Source of the DNA: a virus
Direction: 5' to 3' (one strand)
IMG/VR virus record: IMGVR_UViG_3300045988_107529
Span: 16,779 to 80,778 of that record
DNA length: 64,000 nucleotides
The position numbers and the translations under genes were made by a program. The notes under the pieces were generated by a model. That model worked only from the letters and a program-made list of their open reading frames with translations. It ran no database searches and had not been told where the DNA came from. This document shows positions 5,324 to 61,386 of this stretch, piece by piece; positions within the stretch are counted from its first letter, which is position 1, and every line of letters starts with the position of its first letter.

Positions 5324-6055
5324 CTGGATTTCCTTGATTTTTTGTTGCCAAAATAATGTTAGAATTTAGGAATCATCCACAAGTTAGTTGCACTATTGAA
5401 GTTTTGAACAACTGCGGTTTTCCATTGCCACAAAATCAACCAGGGGCAGCACCGGGAGCCGATACCGCGCCAAGCTGATGAAGCCGTGACGATTCCGGGA
5501 ATGATTGAATATCAACAAAGACGACAGCCAGCCGTAGACCTGGCAGACCAGAACCAACCGCCCACAGATAATAGGCCATAGCAACAAGTAACATATAACG
5601 TGGCGTTAAAATACAATAATACTCTTGCAAAATAAGCCTTAAATAGCTTGTAACGTATTTAGCCTATACTTTATTGACTACGATTATAAAACGCCTTAAA
5701 ATGGCAAATACAGCGCCATACAACAATAATTGATATATAGCCCGGACAGCTGCGACAGATCACCGGGAAGCCTGGACAAGTCACGCACATAAGCGGACAA
5801 AATGCACCAATTTACACGGTACGCAAATAAAGCATAGCCGCACATAGCTATACAAGGCTATTATATACCTATAGCCGCAGACAGTCAATAAACCATGCAA
5901 GACAATAAAAAGCGTTTTAAAGGCTTATAAGCGGCTTAAAATGTAAATGCTGAAAAATCCCCATTAACAGAATAAAAAACGATTTACGGATAAAATAGCG
6001 CGTTAATTGATTGACTTATTATATTAACTTTGCAAGGTGCATCTGGCAGAATGCC

Positions 6056-6320: not shown

Positions 6321-6377
6321 GCTTTTATCTTTCTTCCCTTCACCCTGGGAGCCAGGATATAAAAAGACGCGCCCTTA

Positions 6378-6755
6378 TTATTTTAAAGTCATTTTTGTAA
6401 CAGCCGGAAGACTGCGGAAAAATTCCCGGCGGTCGTAATCATCATTAATTTTAAATTGTTTGTCACTTGTGGGGATGATCTCGCCGCCGATAAGCTCCAT
6501 ACAGGAGAGTTGCAAACAGTTCTCTTTTTTTGTTGATCTGTGCAGCGCATATCGCATCACAGACTTTTTACCATCCCGACGCTTTACCGGGGACATATCC
6601 CAATAAGCTAATTTAATAACGCCACCAGCAACAGCCTTAAAGATTTCCATTGCTTCCTTTTCAGCTTTTCTGTTGATTGTATCAACTGTTAAGAAATCGC
6701 CGCTTTTTATGGCGGCGATTGTCTGCGCTTGCGTGGCTTTCTTGATTGTTATCAT
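6378..6755 (-). CDS. hypothetical protein
   Basis: Start moved to MITIKKATQ. GGAGGG lies 8 nt upstream, and this start abuts the stop of the upstream gene. Confidence 0.5.
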   Translation of the reverse strand: MITIKKATQAQTIAAIKSGDFLTVDTINRKAEKEAMEIFKAVAGGVIKLAYWDMSPVKRRDGKKSVMRYALHRSTKKENCLQLSCMELIGGEIIPTSDKQFKINDDYDRREFFRSLPAVTKMTLK

Positions 6756-10673: not shown

Positions 10674-10702
10674 TTGAAAAAACACACATTATAGTGTATA
10701 AT
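10674..10702 (+). promoter_or_regulatory. sigma-A-type promoter of the recombinase gene
   Basis: TTGAAA (10674-10679), 17-nt spacer, TATAAT (10697-10702) preceded by TG. Confidence 0.6.
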
Positions 10703-10732
10703 TGTTTTATAAAGAAACAGGAGTGTGTATAT

Positions 10733-11323
10733 ATGAAAGTAGGATATGTAAGAGTTTCAACAGTAGAACAAAATGAAGCGAGACAGATTGAAGCAATGAA
10801 AACAGATGGTGTTGAAAAAATTTATATGGATAAAAAATCTGGGAAAGACTTCAATCGTCCAGAGTATCAGAGAATGATTTCAGAGCTAACAAAAGACGAT
10901 ATATTGGTAATCCATTCAATTGACCGTCTTGGAAGAAACTACAATGAAATTGTTGAACAGTGGAGATGTATCACAAAAGAAATCGGAGCCGATATTATCG
11001 TACAGGACATGCCACTTCTTAACACATGCCAGGATAAAGACCTAACAGGAACCTTAATTACAGACATTGTATTGCAGCTTTTTTCATATGTAGCCCAAAG
11101 AGAGAGAGAAAACACTCGCCAACGTCAAAAAGAAGGCATTGAAATAGCAAAGACGCAAGGCAAATATAAAGGCCGCGCCAAAAAAGAGATAGATAAGGAA
11201 CTTTTCAAAGAAACCAAACGTAGCTGGCAAAGAGGGGAAATAACAAAGGTACAATTTGCCGAGATTATGGGAGTTTCAAGAAGCACGCTATATAAACTTT
11301 TAGAGGGGGATAAAGATGATTGA
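10733..11323 (+). CDS. small serine recombinase (resolvase/invertase type)
   Basis: MKVGYVRVSTVEQNEARQ carries the catalytic Ser motif. Also present are DRLGRN and the C-terminal HTH FAEIMGVSRSTLYKLL. Confidence 0.85.
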   Translation: MKVGYVRVSTVEQNEARQIEAMKTDGVEKIYMDKKSGKDFNRPEYQRMISELTKDDILVIHSIDRLGRNYNEIVEQWRCITKEIGADIIVQDMPLLNTCQDKDLTGTLITDIVLQLFSYVAQRERENTRQRQKEGIEIAKTQGKYKGRAKKEIDKELFKETKRSWQRGEITKVQFAEIMGVSRSTLYKLLEGDKDD

Positions 11324-12805: not shown

Positions 12806-13166
12806 TTGGCGTGGAACAAAATGTTTTATTGATGGGAATAAAGTTCCGAATGTACGATCAGTTGATTTCCATGTGGCAGTATATGGAATACCCGTGGTTA
12901 AATTTGAAATGATGGAAGTTCCAGATATTGAAATGGAGTGCCTAGCACAAATTAGTGTCACTTCTCAATCAATTACTGATGCAATTTCAGTTTTAAGGCA
13001 CGAATTACTACAACATGGAGAAATTTACAATGGATTCAAATCAAGCCTAAAATCGGCTTTAGAATCCTACAATTACTGTGGAATGCCATTTGAGCCAGAG
13101 GAAGAGATTGCAGAAAAAATTCTGAACTTCTTAATTGGGGAGGAAAAAGAAAATGAATGCACTTAA
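12768..13166 (+). CDS. hypothetical protein
   Basis: Start moved to MPIVKITNPNPYD, with AAAGGGG upstream. The rest of the track ORF 12636.. overlaps the previous gene. Confidence 0.5.
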   Translation: MPIVKITNPNPYDWRGTKCFIDGNKVPNVRSVDFHVAVYGIPVVKFEMMEVPDIEMECLAQISVTSQSITDAISVLRHELLQHGEIYNGFKSSLKSALESYNYCGMPFEPEEEIAEKILNFLIGEEKENECT

Positions 13167-13329
13167 TGTAATTGGGACAGCTGTAAATCTTGTATTTTTC
13201 GTTCTGGTTCTTGCTGGAACTTTAGCCATACTGGACGAAGAAGGAAAGACAAACGTAATACAGATTTTATTCTGCATTTGTTTAGAAATATGTTTCGCAC
13301 TTAATATTTTTTTAATCTGCACGAGGTGA
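13153..13329 (+). CDS. small membrane protein
   Basis: MNALNVIGTAVNLVFFVLVLAGTLAIL...ILFCICLEICFALNIFLI has two hydrophobic helices. Confidence 0.45.
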   Translation: MNALNVIGTAVNLVFFVLVLAGTLAILDEEGKTNVIQILFCICLEICFALNIFLICTR

Positions 13330-13627
13330 CAAATGTATTTACCGATTCCAATTGGAATTATCCCGATTGAGTTAATCGAAAGGGTTAAATTCATAAAAGC
13401 GCCGCTTCGACTTAATCCATGTAGGTTCGGGAAAGCCTATGAAAGTGATAAGTCGAGGCATCCAGAGTAGCGTAAGCTCTTATTGATGAATACGCCAGGA
13501 ATTATTGAATATTTAGAAAAAGAAAATTTCCCTCCTGGAAAAGAGTAATCAGTAAGAGCGGAAAGTTTATATACTTGTTTAGCTTAATATCACGACTTCC
13601 CCGGTTTTAATGGTGCGCCGGGGTTGA

Positions 13628-13700
13628 TGGGCTATCGCCAAACGGTTAAGGCACAGCACTTTGACTGCTATATTTGCTGGTTCGAATCCAGTTAGCCCAG
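13628..13700 (+). tRNA. tRNA-Gln (anticodon TTG)
   Basis: Hand-folded cloverleaf: TGGGCTA/TAGCCCA acceptor, GCC..GGC D-stem, loop CTTTGAC, GCTGG-TTCGAAT-CCAGT T-arm. Very similar to Bacillus tRNA-Gln as I remember it. No encoded CCA. Confidence 0.85.
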
Positions 13701-13850
13701 TTTGCGGTTTTGCTAACGCCGCAAGTTCATTTTATAACACTCTTTTCTGAAATCTAAAAGCGTTTCAGAAAACCTTTGTTGCGGTTGGTGGTCAAGAACT
13801 GCAACAGTGCCGGATTGTTTGTCATGGCGGTCAAATAATTCGGTATCTTA

Positions 13851-13923
13851 GGAAGCTTAGTTCAGCGGTAAGAGCAACGGCCTCATAAGCCGTAAGTCCT
13901 GGGTTCGAATCCCAGAGCTTCCA
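13851..13923 (+). tRNA. tRNA with CAT anticodon (elongator Met or Ile2/lysidine type)
   Basis: GGAAGCT/AGCTTCC acceptor, GTTC..GAGC D-arm, ACGGC-CTCATAA-GCCGT, CTGGG-TTCGAAT-CCCAG. Confidence 0.85.
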
Positions 13924-14216
13924 TTTCTTCTAAATGCCATTCATCCGTAATATGGGTGGAAAAAACTTCCAGTTGAGCGTGTGGATTAGGTAAATTTATA
14001 GGTGCGATACGGCGTAGCCTAAATGGATCTGATTTCCCGGCTGGTATATCTCGGAGTTAAAAACATTAACGCAGCGCACGTTAATAAAAGGAGTTTTCAA
14101 GAGATGCCGTTCAAAGACGCATAAAAATATCCAGTGAATCTACAGCACTAAAACTTGTAGATAGTGGAAAGCATAACACGATAAACCTATTGCTAACCCG
14201 GAAGAACCGGGTTATT

Positions 14217-14285
14217 CGGAAAGTGCAAGTAACTGGGAACGGGCTAGTCGACTAGGTCTTGATGGTTCGAATCCATCCTTTCCGA
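14217..14285 (+). ncRNA. tRNA-like element: acceptor stem plus T-arm, no foldable D/anticodon arms
   Basis: CGGAAAG...GATGG-TTCGAAT-CCATC-CTTTCCG-A. The interior contains only the palindrome CTAGTCGACTAG. 69 nt. Confidence 0.4.
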
Positions 14286-14444
14286 TTGTTTGGAGACTGA
14301 AAGTTTGGTGGTAGGAAAAGCACAGAGCAGTGCGTAGGAATGTATAACCGAGTTCCGAATACGTACTGTTTATCGGTGATATAGTGACTTCCTCTAGTAG
14401 TCAATAAGTGAACGTGCTGAAATGGTTCTTCCAAACATGTACAT

Positions 14445-14516
14445 AGCAGGATAGAGAAGCGGAATCTCGCATGGCTCATATCCATGAAAACGGCGGTTCG
14501 AATCCGTCTCCTGCTA
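14445..14516 (+). tRNA. second tRNA with CAT anticodon
   Basis: AGCAGGA/TCCTGCT acceptor, GAGA-AGCGGAA-TCTC, CATGG-CTCATAT-CCATG, GGCGG-TTCGAAT-CCGTC. Confidence 0.85.
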
Positions 14517-14575
14517 TTCCATCTACCAAGTGTAGATAGGAAATATGACTTTAGCATAGCTATTGTTGGTTTTTA

Positions 14576-14689
14576 GACGAGGCAGCTCAATTGGACAGAG
14601 CAATGAGAATATTAGTCATGTTTGTGACTATAACAGCAATTTACTCCATTACAAGGCATAGGTTGGTGGTTCGAATCCATCCCTCGTCA
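14576..14689 (+). ncRNA. 114-nt aberrant tRNA-like RNA (canonical acceptor, D- and T-arms; anticodon region replaced)
   Basis: GACGAGG/CCTCGTC acceptor, GCTC-AATTGGACA-GAGC D-arm, GGTGG-TTCGAAT-CCATC T-arm. The centre holds hairpin TAGTCA-TGTTTG-TGACTA plus about 34 extra nt. Confidence 0.45.
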
Positions 14690-14690
14690 C

Positions 14691-14781
14691 TGCCCCGGTT
14701 ATCGGTTACGGAAAACCGATTAGAACATGTTTGTGTTCTTCACTGCAAATAATTTTATAGGTTCAAATCCTGTCGGGGCAA
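14691..14781 (+). ncRNA. 91-nt aberrant tRNA-like RNA, tandem to the previous one
   Basis: TGCCCCG/CGGGGCA acceptor, ATCG(GTT)-loop-(AAC)CGAT arm, hairpin AGAACA-TGTTTG-TGTTCT, 17-nt linker, ATAGG-TTCAAAT-CCTGT T-arm. It starts 2 nt after the previous element ends. Confidence 0.45.
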
Positions 14782-14934
14782 TTATGTGATGCTTACAGCA
14801 ATCATTTTGGACATAACTGCTAAATTATGAAACCCAAAAGCATCATGAAATTTATGGGACGCTTACAGCAACTCACTTAAATAAAATCTAATTCGTATAT
14901 TTTATATTTTTTGTGTCCTGAAAGGAGAAGAAAC

Positions 14935-16386
14935 ATGGATTTTGCAAATGCAATGAAGGAAGAAAGCAAGTTTACAAGAACTGAAAACGGAGCAGTTGCG
15001 CTGAATACTACAAGTGATGCAAGACTTGACCTGTTCGGAACTATTGGTGCATTGAGAGAAGCTGATGAAAATAGAATCACCACTTTATTCTCAGAAGCAT
15101 TTGCACAGGATAAACTTTTTGCCACAAAGATTGCTTTTTATGCAAGAGATATTCGTTGTGGGCTTGGAGAGAGAAAAACTTTCCGAACCATTATCCGCTA
15201 CATGGCTGAACATCATCCAGAAGCACTCAGACCGAATCTTGATTTAATTGGAGTATTCGGGAGATACGATGATCTGTATGAACTGATTGAAACACCACTT
15301 GAAGATGACATGTGGAAATCTATGAAGAAACAATTTGAGGAAGATTTGAAAAATCTCAATGATGGAAAAGCAATTTCTTTACTTGCTAAATGGATTAAGA
15401 CTGCTGATGCAAGTAGCAGAGAAACTAGGAAGTTAGGAATCTTGACTGCACAGAAGTTGGGTTATCCAGTCTACAACTTTAAGAGAATTGTTCGTAGCAT
15501 GAGAAAACAGATCGGTGTTGTTGAAAGCCTTATGTCTGCCGGTAAATGGAATGAGATTAAATATCCAGAAGTTCCGAGCCGTGCAATGATGATTTATCGC
15601 AAGGCCTTTGCAAAACATGATCCAGATGGATTTAATGATTTTATTAATAAGGCTGATAAAGGAGAAGTTAAAATCAACGCTTCAACTTTGTATCCTTATG
15701 ACATCGTGGAAAAAATCCTTTACGGAAGAGAAAACAACAAAGTTCTTGAAGCACAGTGGAAAGCACTTCCAGATTATGTTGAACAGGGAACAAACGCACT
15801 CATAATGGCGGACGTATCTGGCTCAATGTATGGAAGACCAATGGCAACATCAATTGGACTAGCTATATATTTTGCCGAGAGAAACACAGGCGCATATCAT
15901 AATCTTTTTATGACTTTCTCGGCAAATCCACAGATTGTTACTTTGAAAGGAGAAACACTTTTTCAAAAGGTGAGAAATGTTAATAAGGCAGACTGGGGAA
16001 TGAATACAAACCTCAAAGCAGCATTCGAGAAAGTTCTTGATATTGCTGAAAAGAACAATATTTCACAAGAACAAATGCCAAAAGCTATCGTTGTAATTTC
16101 CGATATGGAAATTGATCGTTGCGGAAATAAGGACTGGTCTTTTTATGACAAAATGGAAAGTAAGTTTCGCAAAGCCGGATATGTTATTCCAAACATTATT
16201 TTCTGGAATGTCGAAAGCAGACATGATGTATTCCACGCGGACTCTACAAGGAAAGGCGTACAGCTTGCAAGTGGTCAGTCGGTGACAGTGTTCAAACAGG
16301 TGTTACAGAATCTTGGATACAATCCAATTGAAGCTATGGAGAACACGATCAATTCGGAAAGATACAATTGTATTACTGTCGAATGA
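14935..16386 (+). CDS. DUF2828-family protein with C-terminal vWA domain (MIDAS DxSxS)
   Basis: MDFANAMKEESKFTRTENGAVALNTTSDARLDLF... matches the DUF2828 N-terminus from memory. ALIMADVSGSMYGRPMATSIGLAIYFAE is a vWA MIDAS motif. AAAGGAGAAG RBS. Confidence 0.75.
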   Translation: MDFANAMKEESKFTRTENGAVALNTTSDARLDLFGTIGALREADENRITTLFSEAFAQDKLFATKIAFYARDIRCGLGERKTFRTIIRYMAEHHPEALRPNLDLIGVFGRYDDLYELIETPLEDDMWKSMKKQFEEDLKNLNDGKAISLLAKWIKTADASSRETRKLGILTAQKLGYPVYNFKRIVRSMRKQIGVVESLMSAGKWNEIKYPEVPSRAMMIYRKAFAKHDPDGFNDFINKADKGEVKINASTLYPYDIVEKILYGRENNKVLEAQWKALPDYVEQGTNALIMADVSGSMYGRPMATSIGLAIYFAERNTGAYHNLFMTFSANPQIVTLKGETLFQKVRNVNKADWGMNTNLKAAFEKVLDIAEKNNISQEQMPKAIVVISDMEIDRCGNKDWSFYDKMESKFRKAGYVIPNIIFWNVESRHDVFHADSTRKGVQLASGQSVTVFKQVLQNLGYNPIEAMENTINSERYNCITVE

Positions 16387-16446
16387 AACAAAAGTGAAAA
16401 CCATCTCAGTTCCTTTGAAAAGAACTGTCCGTGACAGGCGGCAATA

Positions 16447-16518
16447 TGAAACATAGCTCAGTGGTAGAGCAATGATACTCAATATCATGTGACACAGGTT
16501 CGATTCCTGTTGTTTCTA
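16447..16518 (+). tRNA. tRNA with TCA anticodon (UGA-reading: suppressor / Trp-UCA-like), unusual C33 and T1:T72 mismatch
   Basis: TGAAACA..TGTTTCT acceptor (first pair mismatched), GCTC-AGTGGTA-GAGC, ATGAT-ACTCAAT-ATCAT, ACAGG-TTCGATT-CCTGT. Confidence 0.65.
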
Positions 16519-16564
16519 TCTGGCAAATTGCCATTGCCAGAAGTTGCATTTTCCCCCTTAAAGT

Positions 16565-16619
16565 TCCAGTGTTTCTCGTTGGGAGATTCATGCCGTTCAA
16601 GTCGGCACACTGGATTTTT
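16565..16619 (+). ncRNA. anticodon-arm-less mini tRNA-like hairpin ending in a T-run (also works as terminator of the tRNA unit)
   Basis: TCCAGTG-TT-TCTC-GTTGG-GAGA-TTCA-TGCCG-TTCAAGT-CGGCA-CACTGGA-TTTTT. Confidence 0.4.
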
Positions 16620-16636
16620 CTAAATCGAGGTAATTT

Positions 16637-16786
16637 ATGAAAGAAAAATGTTGCAAGAATTGCAGAAGACATGATGACTTCACATGGGTTTGTTTCAATG
16701 GTGATAGCGAATATTGCGCAGACTTTACGGAGCCAGAGTGTTATTGTGAGTTTTGGGAGAGAAAAGAAGATGGAGATATGTGGTAA
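16637..16786 (+). CDS. 49-aa Cys-rich protein (not in ORF track)
   Basis: GAGGT RBS then ATG at 16637. Product is MKEKCCKNCRRHDDFTWVCFNGDSEYCADFTEPECYCEFWERKEDGDMW. Confidence 0.5.
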   Translation: MKEKCCKNCRRHDDFTWVCFNGDSEYCADFTEPECYCEFWERKEDGDMW

Positions 16787-16937
16787 AGAAATAAAAGACG
16801 AATGTTCAAACTGCGGAAATATCCTTGAATGCGAATTGTTCCGTCAAGGGCATGGAATAAAACAGGAACGTGAAAACATAGCTAAAATGATTGCCTGTCA
16901 GATGAAGCACAGGGAGAGAAGGGAATTTGAATGCTAA
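16770..16937 (+). CDS. small Cys-rich protein
   Basis: MEICGKEIKDECSNCGNILECELF... The internal start of track ORF 16671..16937 avoids overlap with the previous gene. Confidence 0.45.
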   Translation: MEICGKEIKDECSNCGNILECELFRQGHGIKQERENIAKMIACQMKHRERREFEC

Positions 16938-17206
16938 ATTTACTTGATAAACGCAATTGCCCTGTTTGCGGTGGAATATTGAAATGTGAAAATGCCGATT
17001 TCACAAACCCTTTTATAGAAAAAGGACTCTTTTTAAATGTGACATGGCAATGCACCAATTGCGGCGCTGAATATACTGCAAAACTTGAATTAACCCCAAA
17101 CGGATATGAGTTGCAAGACCGTGAAGCACATATTGATGTAGAGGATAATTTTTCAGCCGAAAAATTTATGCTTGGAAGAGACAATTTTCGAAGACAGAGG
17201 TGGTAA
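16931..17206 (+). CDS. zinc-ribbon protein
   Basis: CPVCGG...CTNCGA form two CxxC pairs. Confidence 0.5.
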   Translation: MLNLLDKRNCPVCGGILKCENADFTNPFIEKGLFLNVTWQCTNCGAEYTAKLELTPNGYELQDREAHIDVEDNFSAEKFMLGRDNFRRQRW

Positions 17207-17208
17207 AT

Positions 17209-17532
17209 ATGAAATTTGAGGATATGGCAAACTGGACAGAGGAACAGCTAAAAAAAGAGGTTGTGAGACTATCTGAAGAATGTGAGAAGAAGCAGCATAT
17301 AATCCTGGACTATGAAGCTTTATCGGAGACAATTAACCAAAAGCTTCTTGAAAATGATAACTGGAAGATTCCGATTGATGGAATTGAAAATGTAGATACT
17401 GGTCATCCATCTATAGAATGGTATGAACAACGCCACCAGGATGACTGTATTAGAATCAACGAGTTAACTGTTACTGTTGACACTCTGGTTGACCGATATG
17501 CTAATTTAAGGAAAAATAAAGGAATGTGCTGA
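17209..17532 (+). CDS. hypothetical protein
   Basis: MKFEDMANWTEEQLKKE..., with AGAGGTGG RBS. Confidence 0.5.
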   Translation: MKFEDMANWTEEQLKKEVVRLSEECEKKQHIILDYEALSETINQKLLENDNWKIPIDGIENVDTGHPSIEWYEQRHQDDCIRINELTVTVDTLVDRYANLRKNKGMC

Positions 17533-17533
17533 T

Positions 17534-17830
17534 ATGGGTGAAAAGGACAAGTTAAGACGCTTATTTATAGGAGATGGGGAAACAGCCATATCGGGAATAC
17601 CAGAATTTCCAGGAGATTTAATTGCTTATGCATTACAGACTTTTGAGACACAAGATAATTCTGTTATCTTCGCAGGAAAATCACTTGAATTTGAAACCGA
17701 ATTTAAACTCACTAAAGAAAACGCTTTGCTCTTTGCTTTTCCAGAACGAATAAATCAGAATAATTTCCGAAAAATGCATGGCATTCCAAAGCGGAGGAAA
17801 ATTAATGGTACCAGGAAACGCAGATTATGA
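17534..17830 (+). CDS. hypothetical protein
   Basis: 98-aa ORF with no recognisable motif. Confidence 0.45.
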   Translation: MGEKDKLRRLFIGDGETAISGIPEFPGDLIAYALQTFETQDNSVIFAGKSLEFETEFKLTKENALLFAFPERINQNNFRKMHGIPKRRKINGTRKRRL

Positions 17831-18056
17831 CCTTGACGGAGCTTTATTGCGTGATGAAGCCGTATATCTAAAGAAACTACATTCAGAGTATCTAGTATGC
17901 GATGATTTAAAGATTGGAAATATTGAACCAATATCAAAAGAAGTGTTGAACAATATAGAAATCACACAAAACAAAAAGATTGTTTATGGAACTTTTGGAA
18001 CATTTTCCATTAATGATTTGCCAAAGCAATTGAGGGAGAAAATTAATGAGTATTAA
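17805..18056 (+). CDS. hypothetical protein
   Basis: Start moved to MVPGNADYD, behind GCGGAGGAAAA. Confidence 0.45.
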   Translation: MVPGNADYDLDGALLRDEAVYLKKLHSEYLVCDDLKIGNIEPISKEVLNNIEITQNKKIVYGTFGTFSINDLPKQLREKINEY

Positions 18057-18279
18057 GTCAGCATTAGAATCCGAAGGAATAGATTTTTCTGAATACATGA
18101 ACCCACCAGAACCATGGAATGGACAGGCATTAATACGGAATATCAATGGAACGAAATACGCCTGTTGTCCTTTTTGCCAGAAGAAAGCGCTTCTGATTAG
18201 CCCAAACACGAAGATTCAGCACTTGAAACTGAAATGTAAGGGTAGTAATTGCAAGAAAGAGTTTGAGGTGAATGTATGA
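18046..18279 (+). CDS. zinc-ribbon protein
   Basis: CCPFCQKK...CKGSNCKKEFEV. Confidence 0.5.
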   Translation: MSIKSALESEGIDFSEYMNPPEPWNGQALIRNINGTKYACCPFCQKKALLISPNTKIQHLKLKCKGSNCKKEFEVNV

Positions 18280-18455
18280 ACACAAAACGGATTAAATGTA
18301 TTTTGACAGGTGGATGCAAGTTCAAAAGTTCGGATACAGAATCGAAATGCAATGATAAAGAAAAGACTTGCACCATTACAGAAACTTGCTACAAATGTGG
18401 GAAGAAGTACACTGCCGTATTTACCTACAAACAATTAGGGATTCCAGTGAGGTGA
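18276..18455 (+). CDS. 59-aa Cys-rich protein (not in ORF track)
   Basis: MNTKRIKCILTGGCKFKSSDTESKCNDKEKTCTITETCYKCGKKYTAVFTYKQLGIPVR. The gene is bracketed by the 17-nt repeat TGAGGTGAATGTATGAA. Confidence 0.5.
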   Translation: MNTKRIKCILTGGCKFKSSDTESKCNDKEKTCTITETCYKCGKKYTAVFTYKQLGIPVR

Positions 18456-18459
18456 ATGT

Positions 18460-18741
18460 ATGAATTGGTTTAAAGAAAAATGTTCCCACCTATATGAGGA
18501 AATTGGGAAATGCTATGACAGAATAGATTACGGAAATGGTACTCATATAAATGCTTATATTGTAAAAAAATGCAAAATATGCGGAAATATTACAGCCAAG
18601 ACTGTATATTCAAATGAATTTACAAAGTATACATCTCCTGTAAGAGTTGATGATTGTGTAAAAAAACTGATAGCTAAAGGATATGTTGACAAGGTTGATT
18701 TCTTTTTGGAACACGAAAATGATAATATACCGTGGAAATAA
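18460..18741 (+). CDS. Cys-containing hypothetical protein
   Basis: MNWFKEKCSHLYEE...CKICGN. Confidence 0.5.
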   Translation: MNWFKEKCSHLYEEIGKCYDRIDYGNGTHINAYIVKKCKICGNITAKTVYSNEFTKYTSPVRVDDCVKKLIAKGYVDKVDFFLEHENDNIPWK

Positions 18742-18756
18742 ATGGAGGTCTATTGA

Positions 18757-18951
18757 GTGAAGAAGGCAAGAAAAATATGTTGGATAATTGCGAATTTCAT
18801 AATATTCAAATGGGCAGCAGATTATTTGATAGCCACAATTCAAATGATGGTTGAAAATAATTGGGGATTTTCGGCAGTACCATTACTGTTTATGGCAGTA
18901 TTCGCAGAATGGAAAGTAATTGAAAATATTTTTACGGAATTAAGAAGATGA
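18757..18951 (+). CDS. small membrane protein
   Basis: GTG start behind ATGGAGGTC, with two hydrophobic segments. Confidence 0.4.
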   Translation: MKKARKICWIIANFIIFKWAADYLIATIQMMVENNWGFSAVPLLFMAVFAEWKVIENIFTELRR

Positions 18952-18972
18952 TTTTATCAAGAAAGGATATGT

Positions 18973-19176
18973 ATGACAAAACAAGAAGCCGTAGTAGTTG
19001 AAACCTACACAGGAATTTGTATGCTTGTAGGAGATGATCGCCGACTTGCATATGAATATGCAGAAAAACTTTTAGGTCATCCGATATATACGCATGAATT
19101 CCCAAAGTATGTCGACGAGTTAAAAAAACTTAGCAAGCCAGATTTTATTGAAATTTGCAAAAAGTTAAGCGATTAA
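18973..19176 (+). CDS. hypothetical protein
   Basis: 67-aa ORF with AAAGGA RBS. Confidence 0.45.
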   Translation: MTKQEAVVVETYTGICMLVGDDRRLAYEYAEKLLGHPIYTHEFPKYVDELKKLSKPDFIEICKKLSD

Positions 19177-19338
19177 ATGGTATGGTGCGAATTAAGAAAC
19201 ATTCCGTGCATACATCCAGAACCAGATGGATTAGAAAATTGCAGATATTGTGAAAAATATAGTTTTGAAAAATATTTAGAATACAAAAAATCAAAAAGAA
19301 AAGTCAAGAGAGCCAAAAAGGAGCGCCATTATGAGTGA
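19177..19338 (+). CDS. 53-aa Cys-containing basic-tailed protein (not in ORF track)
   Basis: MVWCELRNIPCIHPEPDGLENCRYCEKYSFEKYLEYKKSKRKVKRAKKERHYE. Its 3' end overlaps the rtcB start and contains the left copy of the 14-bp repeat. Confidence 0.45.
   Translation: MVWCELRNIPCIHPEPDGLENCRYCEKYSFEKYLEYKKSKRKVKRAKKERHYE
19302..19315 (+). repeat. left copy of 14-bp direct repeat AGTCAAGAGAGCCA flanking rtcB
   Basis: An identical 14-mer occurs at 20536-20549. Confidence 0.8.
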
Positions 19339-20533
19339 TTTGAAGATATTTACAGAAAAAATCGAGCAAGAAGCATTAAATCAAATTTATACACTAATAA
19401 AACAGCCTGCATTTTCTGAATGTAAAGTACGAATCATGCCAGATGTTCACGCAGGGGCAGGATGTGTAATTGGCTTTACAGCTGATCTTGGAGATAAAGT
19501 AATTCCGAACATTGTTGGAGTAGACATTGGATGCGGAATGCTCACAACACAAATTCCTACTGATGTGGGAACAATAGATTTTAAAATCCTTGACGAAGTG
19601 ATAAGAAATAATGTTCCGGCAGGAAGAAATGTACGTGACGAAATCATAAATTTTAAAGAATTAGAAGAACTTCACTGCTTTTCACTGCTTAAAAATGTTG
19701 AATGGATTCGCAGGAGTCTTGGTACACTTGGGGGAGGAAATCATTTTATTGAAGTTGACACCGATTCAAAAGGCATAAACTACCTTGTAATTCACACTGG
19801 AAGTCGTAACCTTGGAAAACAGGTAGCTGAAATATATCAAAAAATTGCCATAGAAGATATGCAGGGTACAGATAAGCTCGAAACTGAAATACAGAAATTA
19901 GTAAAAGAATACAAGTGCTCTGGCAGGCATAAGGAAATTCAAAATAGTATTGATGAATTAAAACGAAAATGGAAGCCAGACAAACTTGGAATTCCGAAAG
20001 AACTATGTTATTTGACAGGTGAGCATAGAAGACAATATCTGCATGATATGAAAATCTGTCAAGAATTTGCAAGAATAAACAGAAGATGCATACAGTCAGC
20101 TATATTCTACACTATGAATTGGACACTTCAAAGAAACACATGGTTTGACACAATTCATAATTATATTGACCACGATACAAATATTGTTCGGAAAGGTGCG
20201 ATATCAGCTAAACATGGTGAAAAAGTTCTTATCCCTATGAATATGCGAGATGGATGTATTATTGCAATTGGAAAAGGAAATGAGGATTGGAACTGTTCAG
20301 CCCCGCATGGCGCAGGGCGTATTATGAGCCGATCAAAAGCAAAAGAAAACATTTCGTTAGAAGAATTTAAGGAGTCTATGAATGGGATATATACAACATC
20401 CGTTCAGAAATCTACAATTGACGAAAGCCCTATGGCTTACAAACCGCCGCAAGAAATTATTGATAAAATCAAAGATACCGTAGATATAGTTGATATTATT
20501 AAACCTGTATATAATTTCAAAGCAAGTGAATAA
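19331..20533 (+). CDS. rtcB: RtcB RNA 3'-phosphate ligase
   Basis: MPDVHAGAGCVIGF, GGGNHFIE, HTGSRNLG and CSAPHGAGR are the RtcB metal-binding and His-GMP motifs. 400 aa. Confidence 0.9.
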   Translation: MSDLKIFTEKIEQEALNQIYTLIKQPAFSECKVRIMPDVHAGAGCVIGFTADLGDKVIPNIVGVDIGCGMLTTQIPTDVGTIDFKILDEVIRNNVPAGRNVRDEIINFKELEELHCFSLLKNVEWIRRSLGTLGGGNHFIEVDTDSKGINYLVIHTGSRNLGKQVAEIYQKIAIEDMQGTDKLETEIQKLVKEYKCSGRHKEIQNSIDELKRKWKPDKLGIPKELCYLTGEHRRQYLHDMKICQEFARINRRCIQSAIFYTMNWTLQRNTWFDTIHNYIDHDTNIVRKGAISAKHGEKVLIPMNMRDGCIIAIGKGNEDWNCSAPHGAGRIMSRSKAKENISLEEFKESMNGIYTTSVQKSTIDESPMAYKPPQEIIDKIKDTVDIVDIIKPVYNFKASE

Positions 20534-20535
20534 TC

Positions 20536-20549
20536 AGTCAAGAGAGCCA
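20536..20549 (+). repeat. right copy of the 14-bp direct repeat
   Basis: AGTCAAGAGAGCCA. In frame it reads ..SVKRAT-stop, echoing the ..KVKRAK of the upstream small ORF. Confidence 0.8.
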
Positions 20550-42762: not shown

Positions 42763-43023
42763 TTTTTGACTGATTGTGTGGTATGATTTCTTTAATGAAG
42801 AAGTACACACGGTTTTGATTTTTGAGCCGCTAAGAAGAAATTAATATTTCTCGATTTTGAGGAATTTTTATCTTACTTGGCGGCTCTTTTTTATTTTAAC
42901 CGTTAATTTTGGTAAAACCAACAGGCTAGACCGATCATCGAAAAGCGGAAATGCCTTGCCGCCTGCCTGTTGATTTACATACAGTTCAAGGCACTCTTTT
43001 ATACGAAAGGCAGGTATCAATCT

Positions 43024-60999: not shown

Positions 61000-61007
61000 C
61001 AAAAAAA

Positions 61008-61036
61008 CTGACAGGAGTGCTGTCCTATCAGTTTTT
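61008..61036 (+). terminator. intrinsic terminator
   Basis: CTGACAGGA-gtgc-TGTCCTATCAG (one mismatch) followed by TTTTT. Confidence 0.55.
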
Positions 61037-61386
61037 GCCTAAATTTGTTTACCTTATGTGTTTTGCAGACGGAACGCACTTGTTCAGTCACATAAGCAGC
61101 ACCAAATGTTTCTTGAAACACTTCGCCACTTACGCAGTTTTAGTTCTGCGATTGAGTAAAAAAAGATTAGCTGCCCATTAGTTGGCGAATGTAGGAATTT
61201 TACCTATAAAAGTAAAATTGCTTAACGGTCTTTGGTAACGCAGGTTACTCTGCTTGCGACCTACAATAAGGAACAGGGCAAATTCAAAAGTTGGGTCAAA
61301 GCAAACAACTCCTTTCATTGCCCATTATTTGGGTATGAAATAATTTTAACACATAGGAAAAATATTTTCAATGCAAGAAAGGTAAG

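Follow-up and report, generated by a model that had tools for sequence, protein, structure and literature searches.

What a phage might do with aberrant tRNA-like RNAs, a DUF2828-vWA protein, and an RtcB RNA ligase, all encoded in or near one tRNA array, is the question raised by a locus in IMG/VR virus record IMGVR_UViG_3300045988_107529. The 64,000-nucleotide (nt) stretch that was analyzed (positions 16,779 to 80,778 of the record) is referred to here as the window, and coordinates are counted from its first letter. An initial annotation had proposed a counter-defense unit combining spare tRNAs, tRNA mimics, a Ro-like protein, and a sealing ligase. The block is read here, with a probability of about 0.62, as a phage Ro60-type ribonucleoprotein locus within a tRNA array, in which a class of "platform" RNAs would be the partners of the DUF2828 protein and the function would probably be counter-defense. 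Three observations, all well supported, carry this reading: the DUF2828 protein has a predicted Ro60-like fold, the four RNAs upstream of the DUF2828 gene share one platform, a covarying helix with an asymmetric ACAGCAA loop, and platform RNAs adjoin genes of the DUF2828 family in phages of several bacterial phyla. The features concerned are the following.

14576 to 14689, + strand: TL2, a tRNA-Val(UAC)-shaped RNA with a 40-nt insertion; 37 versions in 74 of 80 close relatives
14691 to 14781, + strand: TL3, a tRNA-shaped RNA with a degenerate permuted platform; fold z score of −3.8; 52 of 80 close relatives
14786 to 14847, + strand: module C, a standard (type I) platform RNA; 66.5 bits, E value of 2.8e-17 with covariance model R1
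14856 to 14920, + strand: module D, a platform RNA in the 5' leader of the DUF2828 gene; 35.5 bits, E value of 7e-8 with R1
14935 to 16386, + strand: DUF2828 plus DUF7788/vWA protein, 483 amino acids; assigned by Pfam, PHROG 850 ("RNA-binding protein"), and AlphaFold2/Foldseek

A shared RNA platform upstream of the DUF2828 gene

Relatives of the locus were compared in two sets: a close set of 80 IMG/VR loci on ~78-kb gut-phage contigs (proteins 82 to 95% identical), and a distant set of ~60 IMG/VR loci (50 to 86% protein identity) plus six annotated GenBank phages, of Staphylococcus, Bacillus, Listeria, Enterococcus, Mycobacterium, and E. coli. The heptamer ACAGCAA was first seen beside the gene in Bacillus phage Tsamsa and mycobacteriophage UPIE, and it is the same heptamer that is found in TL2. 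In the window, the platform built on it occurs in four copies just upstream of the gene, two in standard order (modules C and D) and two permuted (TL2 and TL3). Modules C and D, and the ACAGCAA link to TL2 and TL3, had been missed in the initial annotation.

Module C has a closing stem GUGAUGCUU/AAGCAUCAU, the loop ACAGCAAU, a second stem UUUUGG/CCAAAA, and a body that is an anticodon-stem-loop look-alike, CAUAA-CUGCUAAA-UUAUG. Module D is laid out as GGGACGCUU-ACAGCAAC…GUGUCCUG, and its 3' strand GUGUCCUG (14913 to 14920) ends 3 nt before the Shine-Dalgarno sequence GGAG (14924 to 14927), which precedes the ATG at 14935. The same junction, GUC(A/C)UG-GAAAGGAG, or GUC(A/C)UG-(G/A)AAAGGAG, recurs at this position in relatives at 57 to 95% protein identity, in which module D has many differing inner stem sequences. 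The stretch from TL3 to the start codon is present in 79 of the 80 close loci.

Across relatives, the platform follows the consensus 5'-(U/A)G(U/G)GA(C/U)NNN-(N0-3)-ACAGCAA(A/U/C)-body-NNN(G/A)UC(A/C)UG-3'. More than 20 NNN combinations retain pairing, as does a U-A to G-C swap (GUGAC/GUCAU versus GGGAC/GUCCU), and a heptamer variant, ACAGCGA, occurs in a few copies. Over the three helices of type I modules, 93.2% of cells were paired, versus 36 to 48% when the partner strand was slid; both sides had changed in 13 of 17 pairs, and none of 500 shuffles reached the observed covariation. Early helix-closure tests at ACAGCAA, using 7- to 8-nt strands and allowing G·U pairs, were weak: random positions were fully paired in 39% of trials.

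The bodies carried by the platform differ. Type I bodies consist of a 5-bp hairpin with a 7-nt loop, and the loops of 39 distinct hairpins are mostly C-U-NNN-A-A (CUGUUAA, 8; CUUUUAA, 7; CUUGAAA, 4; CUGCAAA, 2; CUGCUAA[A], 2), which is the form of a real anticodon loop. In longer modules, a T arm and a D-loop-like AAUGGAUAAA are added. The bodies found in Enterococcus phage Porthos and mycobacteriophage UPIE combine a T arm with a closed acceptor hairpin and a D arm, and they match the YrlA family at 47.8/45.9, 39.8, and 34.4 bits, scores that are significant and under the gathering score of 69. The outer stems of YrlA do not fit these RNAs, and ACAGC(A/G)A lies just 5' of each match. Neither the gathering threshold nor a permissive E value gave any Rfam match to the odd RNAs of the window; the ACAGCAA modules correspond to no Rfam 15 family, and no description of them was found in the literature.

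Several relatives show how varied these arrays can be. Five loci with proteins ~86% identical (L103, L106, L109, L115, and L124) have up to 9 or 10 ACAGCAA modules over ~1.6 kb upstream of the gene, interleaved with tRNAs. In Escherichia phage wV8 (L162), R1 modules at 5716 to 5782 and 5882 to 5940 lie between tRNA genes. A third ACAGCAA there (6374 to 6460) has no R1 match and is followed by a T-arm-like hairpin, GAAGGUUCGAUUCCUUC; it overlaps small hypothetical open reading frames (ORFs) annotated on the opposite strand, which may be misannotated RNA genes. Porthos (L163) encodes a full tmRNA (121 to 471; 143.7 bits) in the same tRNA/RNA block, ~3.5 kb upstream of its DUF2828 gene.

A Ro60-like fold predicted for the DUF2828 protein

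Pfam places a DUF2828 region (E value of 4e-41) and a DUF7788/VWA_2 region (E value of 5e-43) in the 483-residue protein, and the residues of MIDAS, the metal-ion-dependent adhesion site (D293-x-S295-x-S297, T358, and D390), are invariant in 71 homologs, in agreement with the initial assignment as a DUF2828 protein with a vWA/MIDAS motif. An AlphaFold2 model made on the alignment of these 71 sequences had a predicted local distance difference test (pLDDT) score of 95.2 and a predicted template modeling (pTM) score of 0.93. When the model was compared with the PDB using Foldseek, the top seven full-length matches were all Ro60/TROVE structures (E values of 9e-8 to 2e-5, TM-scores of 0.46 to 0.59, ~500 aligned columns), including Ro60 of Thermus phage phiLo (9KOP, the best match, and 9L5Y) and Xenopus Ro (1YVR, 2I91, and 1YVP). 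The next matches covered the vWA domain only, with E values above 5e-3, ~100 times weaker. A Ro60-like fold, with a ring of helical repeats and a MIDAS-bearing vWA domain, is therefore well supported by the predicted structure, and the earlier designation of the protein as Ro-like, which hinged on a TROVE-like fold, is upheld.

Close structural relatives extend to other viruses. A Foldseek search of BFVD returned very close folds in Pithovirus LCPAC304 (TM-score of 0.91), Marseillevirus, Mimiviridae, CroV, and the jumbo phage vB_AbaM_ME3, and in this viral structure library the fold also occurs beside a phage TROVE protein. As judged from modeled structures, the family spans viruses of bacteria and eukaryotes.

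Platform RNAs accompany DUF2828 genes across phages

A homolog of the gene is present in 711 phage GenBank records and in ~6,700 matching clusters at 50% identity. The groups represented include Felixounavirus, Listeria P100-like, Staphylococcus, Enterococcus, Bacillus Tsamsa-like, Campylobacter, and Vibrio phages and cluster L mycobacteriophages, where the homolog carries the annotation "Ro-like RNA binding protein." The gene is found in 251 records of Felixounavirus-like phages, and in wV8 it lies directly upstream of the tRNA array. Genome collections yielded one relative only, in a Lachnospiraceae metagenome-assembled genome (63% identity), so the host and lifestyle of the window phage are weakly supported.

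To follow the RNAs through these phages, covariance model R1 was built from gut-phage loci alone, using 26 short (type I) modules. It has 2 matches in the window, and it matches all six annotated GenBank phages, where its matches are confined to the vicinity of the DUF2828 gene and to the strand of that gene. These phages, which are of different phyla, typically have 3 copies (2 to 5) beside the gene, always on the gene strand. At an E value of ≤0.01, 107 of 107 matches (44 loci) were on the gene strand. A pattern scan of IMG/VR that used only the RNA found 120 loci, 91 of which encode the homolog; the strand is the same in every case, and the distance is within 1 kb in 89. On the gene strand, the 7-mer occurs at 3.9 per kb in the first kilobase upstream of the gene, compared with 0.25 per kb elsewhere. 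The raw strand bias of the 7-mer (335 versus 28) was set aside, since part of it reflects coding-strand composition (of the copies in the window, 22 are on the + strand and 2 on the − strand, and most of them lie within genes); because of this confounding, positional density and covariance-model matches were used instead.

Such co-occurrence could also arise if the ACAGCAA modules were cis elements of a tRNA operon or leader, acting in processing, stability, or attenuation, rather than partners of the DUF2828 protein. This explanation draws on the position of module D in the 5' leader by the ribosome-binding site, on the description of modules within or beside tRNA arrays for every phage examined, on the fact that a partnership is read from co-location, and on the activity of a probable homolog, gp130, in phage T7 without the RNAs of its own phage (discussed below). 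What argues against it is that the position of the modules changes among phages, being upstream of the gene for those of Clostridia, Listeria, Enterococcus, and Bacillus but downstream for those of Staphylococcus, Mycobacterium, and E. coli, so a leader role cannot explain all of them; that UPIE and the Staphylococcus phage have three modules by the gene and no adjacent tRNA array; that the motif is invariant across hosts with differing sets of RNases; and that most loci found from the RNA encode the protein. A purely cis-acting role is considered unlikely.

Circularly permuted platforms in tRNA-shaped RNAs

TL2 combines a 7-bp acceptor stem with a canonical D arm and a T arm, and ~60 nt take the place of the anticodon arm. 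Its insertion (14606 to 14645) lies between tRNA positions 29 and 30 and contains the hairpin AGUCAUG-UU-UGUGACU (14613 to 14630), followed by AUA-ACAGCAAU, with ACAGCAA at 14633 to 14639. The hairpin is the 3' strand of the platform consensus (N-GUCAUG), a UU loop, and the 5' strand of the consensus (UGUGAC-N), followed by the motif, which makes the insertion a circular permutation of the platform. The circular order in TL2 (5' strand, motif, stem 2, body, stem 2, 3' strand) equals that of the free-standing modules, and the RNA ends have been relocated from the platform stem to the acceptor stem. The composite permuted-platform pattern occurs once in the window, versus 0 expected.

Comparison of the 37 versions of TL2 found compensatory changes in the acceptor stem, the T arm, and the inner hairpin. 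Positions 27 to 29 and 41 to 43 are paired in every version. Covariation is seen in the split anticodon stem, where 9 versions read AUG-CC/GG-CAU, 24 read GUA-CC/GG-UAC, and 3 read GUA/UAU, and also in stem 2 (such as AAAGA/UCUUU and AAGAAUG/CAUUCUU). Because MAFFT misaligned TL2 in its variable part and TL3 at its 5' end, column pair counts were dropped there and TL2 was parsed by anchors.

TL3 starts 2 nt past the end of TL2, in the manner of a dimeric tRNA precursor. It has a 7-bp acceptor stem, two 7-bp hairpins (one in the D position), and a T arm, and its minimum-free-energy structure equals the centroid. Its permuted platform reads AGAACAUG-UU-UGUGUUCU (14722 to 14739), then ACUGCAAAU, with ACUGCAA at 14742 to 14748; the hairpin core CAUG-UU-UGUG is common to TL2 and TL3. 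Among the 52 relatives that have it, TL3 occurs in 24 versions, with two compensatory changes, a G-C to A-U in the acceptor stem and an A-U to G-C in hairpin 1. Full-length TL2 is called neither by ARAGORN (default mode) nor by the Rfam tRNA model, and tRNA finders do not recognize TL3 or TL4, a smaller element described below.

The layout of TL2 also raises the idea that it is a tRNA-Val(UAC) gene with a 40-nt intron, excised by an endonuclease, with the halves sealed by a phage or host RtcB and the platform hairpin released. An RtcB gene does lie 4.6 kb downstream of TL2.

19331 to 20533, + strand: RtcB RNA ligase (3'-phosphate/5'-OH sealing); Pfam RtcB, 213 bits (cutoff, 27)

Intron-containing tRNAs of archaea and eukaryotes are spliced by EndA and RtcB, and TL2 is like them in being a cloverleaf with a short insertion and an RtcB, the ligase of that pathway, encoded nearby. 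Removing 14606 to 14645 in silico leaves a perfect 74-nt tRNA-Val(UAC) with U33 and A37 (ARAGORN), the corresponding deletion works likewise in a second lineage, and the split anticodon stem covaries as described above. In some relatives, an ordinary tRNA-Tyr takes the slot of TL2. However, TL2 has no bulge-helix-bulge, the ends of the insertion pair together into a three-way junction, and no splicing endonuclease such as EndA was seen. No part of TL2 is more conserved than the insertion, and the same platform stands free beside the gene in distant phages. A third lineage lacks a standard anticodon loop (the loop has 9 nt if the stem is read as elsewhere; ARAGORN adds an extra A-U pair and calls Leu-CAA), and many modules that cannot be tRNAs also have anticodon-stem-loop look-alikes. 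RtcB is also dispensable: 51 of 71 relatives lack it at this position, whereas TL2 is found in 74 of 80. An intron is thus judged decidedly unlikely.

Output of the ARAGORN intron mode was not used in this comparison. It produced at least 8 differing "intron tRNAs" for TL2 in near-identical loci (Stop, Asn, Glu, Lys, Gly, Cys, and others), as well as a tRNA-Ile with a 253-nt intron across TL1, another element described below, and these calls were treated as arbitrary.

The RtcB gene itself is complete, as had been annotated: in addition to the Pfam score, the motifs MPDVHAGAG, DIGCG, GGGNHF, IHTGSR, and SAPHGAGR align with Pyrococcus RtcB PH1602. It lies immediately upstream of the large terminase gene. 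In close relatives whose sequence reaches the terminase gene, RtcB is present before it in 20 of 71 and absent in 51 of 71, and the latter keep the protein and the RNAs; its inclusion as an integral part of the unit is therefore not sustained. Listeria phage AG20 has a tRNA array followed by the modules and the DUF2828 gene, with RtcB 1.2 kb beyond, and no RtcB is close by in the corresponding loci of Felixounavirus, Staphylococcus, Tsamsa, and UPIE. RtcB is found in 677 phage records, with only partial taxonomic overlap with the DUF2828 family. RtcB is an optional accessory cassette and is not required.

Comparison with known Ro60 and tRNA repair systems

A close bacterial counterpart is the rsr-yrlBA-rtcBA operon of Salmonella, in which the Ro60 ortholog Rsr is encoded with the Y RNAs YrlA and YrlB, which have a tRNA-like domain (PMC4201824; PMC7790460). 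The phage locus resembles the Rsr-Yrl system in having a helical-repeat plus vWA ring protein, adjoining small RNAs with a binding stem, a loop motif, and a tRNA-like domain, and an RtcB nearby, and distant phage members of the family have subthreshold YrlA matches. It differs in that the phage protein lacks the TROVE sequence signature and the phage motif is ACAGCAA in a GNGAC/GUCNUG stem, where YrlA has GNCGAA(N0-1)G. In the region from 13000 to 17000, YrlA (RF02553) had no match even at an E value of ≤10. Unlike YrlA, TL2 keeps the ordinary tRNA order with open acceptor ends and bears the platform as an internal arm on the anticodon stem; many modules have only an anticodon-stem-loop look-alike, and a YrlA-like permuted form is seen in Porthos and UPIE. 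Linkage to RtcB is optional in the phages, and RtcA and RtcR/sigma-54 control were not seen, with no search having been aimed at RtcA or RtcR.

Y-like RNAs beside TROVE-type Ro proteins are established in some phages. Ro60 of Thermus phage phiLo binds two phage Y-like RNAs, Yrl1 and Yrl2, as well as host PNPase (PMC12135203). The TROVE Ro60 proteins of phiLo and of cluster C mycobacteriophages are likewise phage-encoded rings with partner RNAs upstream of the gene, and for phiLo, too, a role in subverting host RNA metabolism or defense has been proposed. In contrast, the window protein is only 17% identical to that of phiLo, and a sequence profile detects no similarity between them; the RNAs of phiLo have a stem-bulge-stem form with CGAA, for which no tRNA-Val-like or anticodon-loop-like bodies are described.

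A functional report that may bear on the DUF2828 family is the 2024 PhageMaP preprint, in which gp130 of Bas63 (Felixounavirus), "structurally similar to Ro60" and located "directly upstream of a stretch of tRNA genes," counters the ppl defense and can be transferred to T7; its authors speculate that some tRNA genes near gp130 are Y RNAs (PMC11482910). Because 251 Felixounavirus-like records hold the DUF2828 gene, and because the gene is directly upstream of the tRNA array in wV8, gp130 is probably a member of the same family; Bas63 was not among the Felixounavirus rows listed in the homolog search. No RNA partner was identified in the Bas63 work, and in wV8 the modules lie between tRNA genes, not in them. 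The Felixounavirus homolog is only ~32% identical to the window protein. Ppl, the sole defense system against which a probable family member has been tested, is not known to be a tRNA nuclease. Another homolog, gp53 of cluster L mycobacteriophage LeBron, is toxic on overexpression.

Phage T4 repairs tRNAs cleaved by PrrC using Pnk and Rnl1, and phage tRNAs with altered anticodon loops evade tRNA-targeting defenses. The locus is like T4 in pairing a tRNA array with an RNA-sealing ligase, as in a conflict over tRNA integrity, and the anticodon loop of its tRNA-UCA is altered (C33). It is unlike T4 in that RtcB chemistry is not that of Rnl1/Pnk, and T4 has neither a Ro-like protein nor platform RNAs.

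A proposed ribonucleoprotein particle

In the interpretation favored here, the DUF2828 protein would bind the platform in the way that the bulged stem of Y RNAs is bound by Ro60. Fused to the platform are tRNA look-alikes, which may serve as an anticodon-stem-loop mimic (module C), a tRNA-Val body (TL2), and a partial tRNA shape (TL3); because the platform is joined to such bodies, the ring would display tRNA mimics. RNase P and RNase Z probably release TL2 and TL3, as for the neighboring tRNAs, since the acceptor ends of both are open and the two are arranged head to tail. The protein may also repress its own translation: module D is a candidate autoregulatory site, and autoregulation is probable because the module sits against the ribosome-binding site, where binding could hinder ribosome access. 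The particle would act early in infection, as a device for counter-defense or RNA metabolism that could tether or divert host enzymes recognizing tRNA shapes (nucleases or PNPase-type exonucleases), with the phage supplying spare tRNAs and RtcB, where present, resealing cleaved ones. A decoy function against anticodon nucleases is something we infer from this arrangement, and we know of no anticodon nuclease for the presumed Lachnospiraceae host.

Several points weigh against this interpretation. The link between protein and RNA consists only of co-location and conservation. Similarity to Ro60 is moderate in structure (TM-scores of 0.46 to 0.59) and absent in sequence: Pfam TROVE had no match at an E value of ≤1 among 71 family members, and the protein and its 71-sequence profile, compared with all PDB sequences, found generic vWA domains only and no Ro60. 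The closing-stem pairing statistics are inflated, as helix score and visual judgment partly guided the choice of rows for alignment A3. No gene is visible in about 29 of the 120 loci from the pattern scan, some of which have short flanks and some of which may be chance matches. A promoter and terminator scan near the RNAs found nothing above chance, except a hairpin after tRNA-UCA. The support from function passes through gp130, whose place in the family is probable rather than demonstrated. Moreover, gp130 counters ppl alone, from a plasmid or from T7, which does not have these RNAs (PMC11482910), so its anti-ppl activity appears independent of cognate RNAs.

A broader and more tentative version of the same idea is that DUF2828 proteins and ACAGCAA RNAs constitute a widespread, so far unrecognized second Ro/Y class in viruses, in which the ring would present modular tRNA decoys that capture or misdirect tRNA-recognizing defense enzymes, anticodon nucleases among them. 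The decoy bodies would then be an anticodon stem-loop (CUUUUAA for Lys, CUGUUAA for Asn, or CUUGAAA for Ser), a T arm, or a whole tRNA (TL2, Val), and in one variant TL2 would additionally be spliced into a working tRNA. This version is possible, and it is put forward as a suggestion rather than as an expectation.

Other RNAs and genes of the array

The remaining RNAs comprise ordinary tRNAs and two further tRNA-like elements.

13628 to 13700, + strand: tRNA-Gln (UUG), the first gene of the array; ARAGORN; Rfam tRNA, 58.2 bits; 74 of 80 close relatives
13851 to 13923, + strand: tRNA with anticodon CAU (Met type); ARAGORN; Rfam tRNA, 71.5 bits
14217 to 14285, + strand: TL1, a degenerate tRNA-like element with an acceptor stem, a T arm, and a collapsed anticodon arm; Rfam tRNA, 27.1 bits
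14444 to 14517, + strand: second tRNA with anticodon CAU; ARAGORN; Rfam tRNA, 60.7 bits
16447 to 16518, + strand: tRNA with anticodon UCA (opal-suppressor type); ARAGORN; Rfam, 57.7 bits; C33, U1·U72
16565 to 16619, + strand: TL4, a 55-nt mini tRNA-like three-way junction; fold z score of −3.5; 48 of 80 close relatives

ARAGORN and Rfam agree on the places of the four tRNAs that had been annotated, and the four aberrant elements (TL1 to TL4) exist and fold as they had been described. The description of the tRNAs as canonical does not extend fully to tRNA-UCA, in which C33 replaces U33 and U1·U72 is a mismatch. Conservation and likeness to Y RNAs, which had been suggested for the tRNA-like elements as a group, hold for TL2 and TL3, with covariation and a motif that tracks DUF2828 across phyla, and fail for TL1 and TL4, in which no ACAGCAA platform is found (TL4 also has no R1 match).

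TL1 scores 27.1 bits against a gathering score of 29 for the Rfam tRNA model, folds no better than shuffled sequences (z score of −0.7), and occurs in 7 of 80 related loci; its acceptor stem and T arm are similar to those of odd tRNAs 3' of the gene in relatives, and it is probably a decaying tRNA. TL4 consists of an 8-bp stem, a 4-bp hairpin, and a T-like GCCG-UUCAAGU-CGGC, followed by a run of five U's. Its changes in relatives are G·U compatible only, none compensatory, and it may be a terminator. There is no evidence that TL1 or TL4 belongs to the Ro60-type system. That all of the aberrant elements are functionless, decaying tRNA pseudogenes in a recombination hotspot for accessory genes, as the rarity and poor fold of TL1, the lack of compensatory changes in TL4, and the great variation in tRNA content and RtcB cassette among close relatives might suggest, is highly improbable and is refuted for TL2, TL3, and modules C and D by covariation, an invariant motif, and retention down to ~50% protein identity and in other phyla.

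The slot of tRNA-UCA looks like a hotspot of anticodon-loop variation. In close relatives, the same scaffold carries the anticodon loops ACUCAAU (UCA, C33), AUUGAAU (UGA), or ACUGAAU. Differing odd tRNAs fill the slot 3' of the DUF2828 gene in relatives (L002, L010, L018, L029, L040, L061, and others); some relatives have, instead of the scaffold just described, one with a CGGAAUG acceptor strand, read as Thr-UGU, Cys-ACA, or Leu-UAA, or a long-arm Ser-GCU. An opal-suppressor-type tRNA has no obvious use here, because ORFs in the window read normally with TGA as stop. Directly 3' of tRNA-UCA is an 8-bp hairpin, UCUGGCAA…UUGCCAGA (16519 to 16541, + strand), the exception in the promoter and terminator scan and the sole terminator-like site of the + strand close to the RNAs; TL4 then follows.

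Between the tRNAs, the noncoding stretches 13380 to 13627 and 13924 to 14216 (+ strand) are conserved in many relatives; the latter has a match in 78 of 80 loci, and 13380 to 13480 can form a long stem. Neither stretch has an ACAGCAA or an Rfam match, and both may harbor further RNAs or promoters.

From TL4 to RtcB (16637 to 19338, + strand) there are ~10 small ORFs, several of them cysteine rich and zinc-ribbon-like, with weak Lar, RecR-ZnF, and treble-clef matches and one DUF7736; PHROG gives a function for none. Large terminase and portal genes lie downstream of RtcB. Elsewhere in the window, Rfam detects two known phage-associated RNA motifs, a FuFi-1 RNA (61002 to 61189, − strand; 136.9 bits) and an int-alpA RNA (42919 to 42991, + strand; 45.4 bits). 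Upstream of the block, at 10694 to 11323 (+ strand), is a small serine recombinase of the resolvase/invertase type (209 amino acids). This gene is not by itself evidence of lysogeny, and the temperate lifestyle assumed in the initial annotation is not established.

Implications for Ro60-type systems in viruses

The combination of genes, which the initial annotation had taken to be undescribed, is common in sequenced phages. A tRNA array, the DUF2828 gene, and RtcB are already annotated in Listeria P100-like phages; the family is informally recognized as Ro-like, through the "Ro-like RNA binding protein" of cluster L mycobacteriophages; and the Ro60-like anti-defense factor of Bas63 has been reported. 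What appears to be new is the class of partner RNAs with a docking motif and modular bodies (anticodon-loop, T-arm, YrlA-like, or whole-tRNA), the circular permutation in TL2 and TL3, and the leader copy at the ribosome-binding site.

Animals, some bacteria, and a few phages are known to have Ro60-Y RNA particles, whose purpose in microbes is still unclear. The results presented here suggest that a much larger, sequence-unrelated family is a structural analog of Ro60 with its own RNA partners. This family includes model phages, such as the Felix O1-like, Listeria P100-like, Staphylococcus, and cluster L mycobacteriophages, and since its partner RNAs are recognizable by a simple motif, they can now be annotated. 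For RNA evolution and design, the locus would offer a natural case of one protein-docking module grafted, even in circularly permuted form, onto parts of tRNAs.

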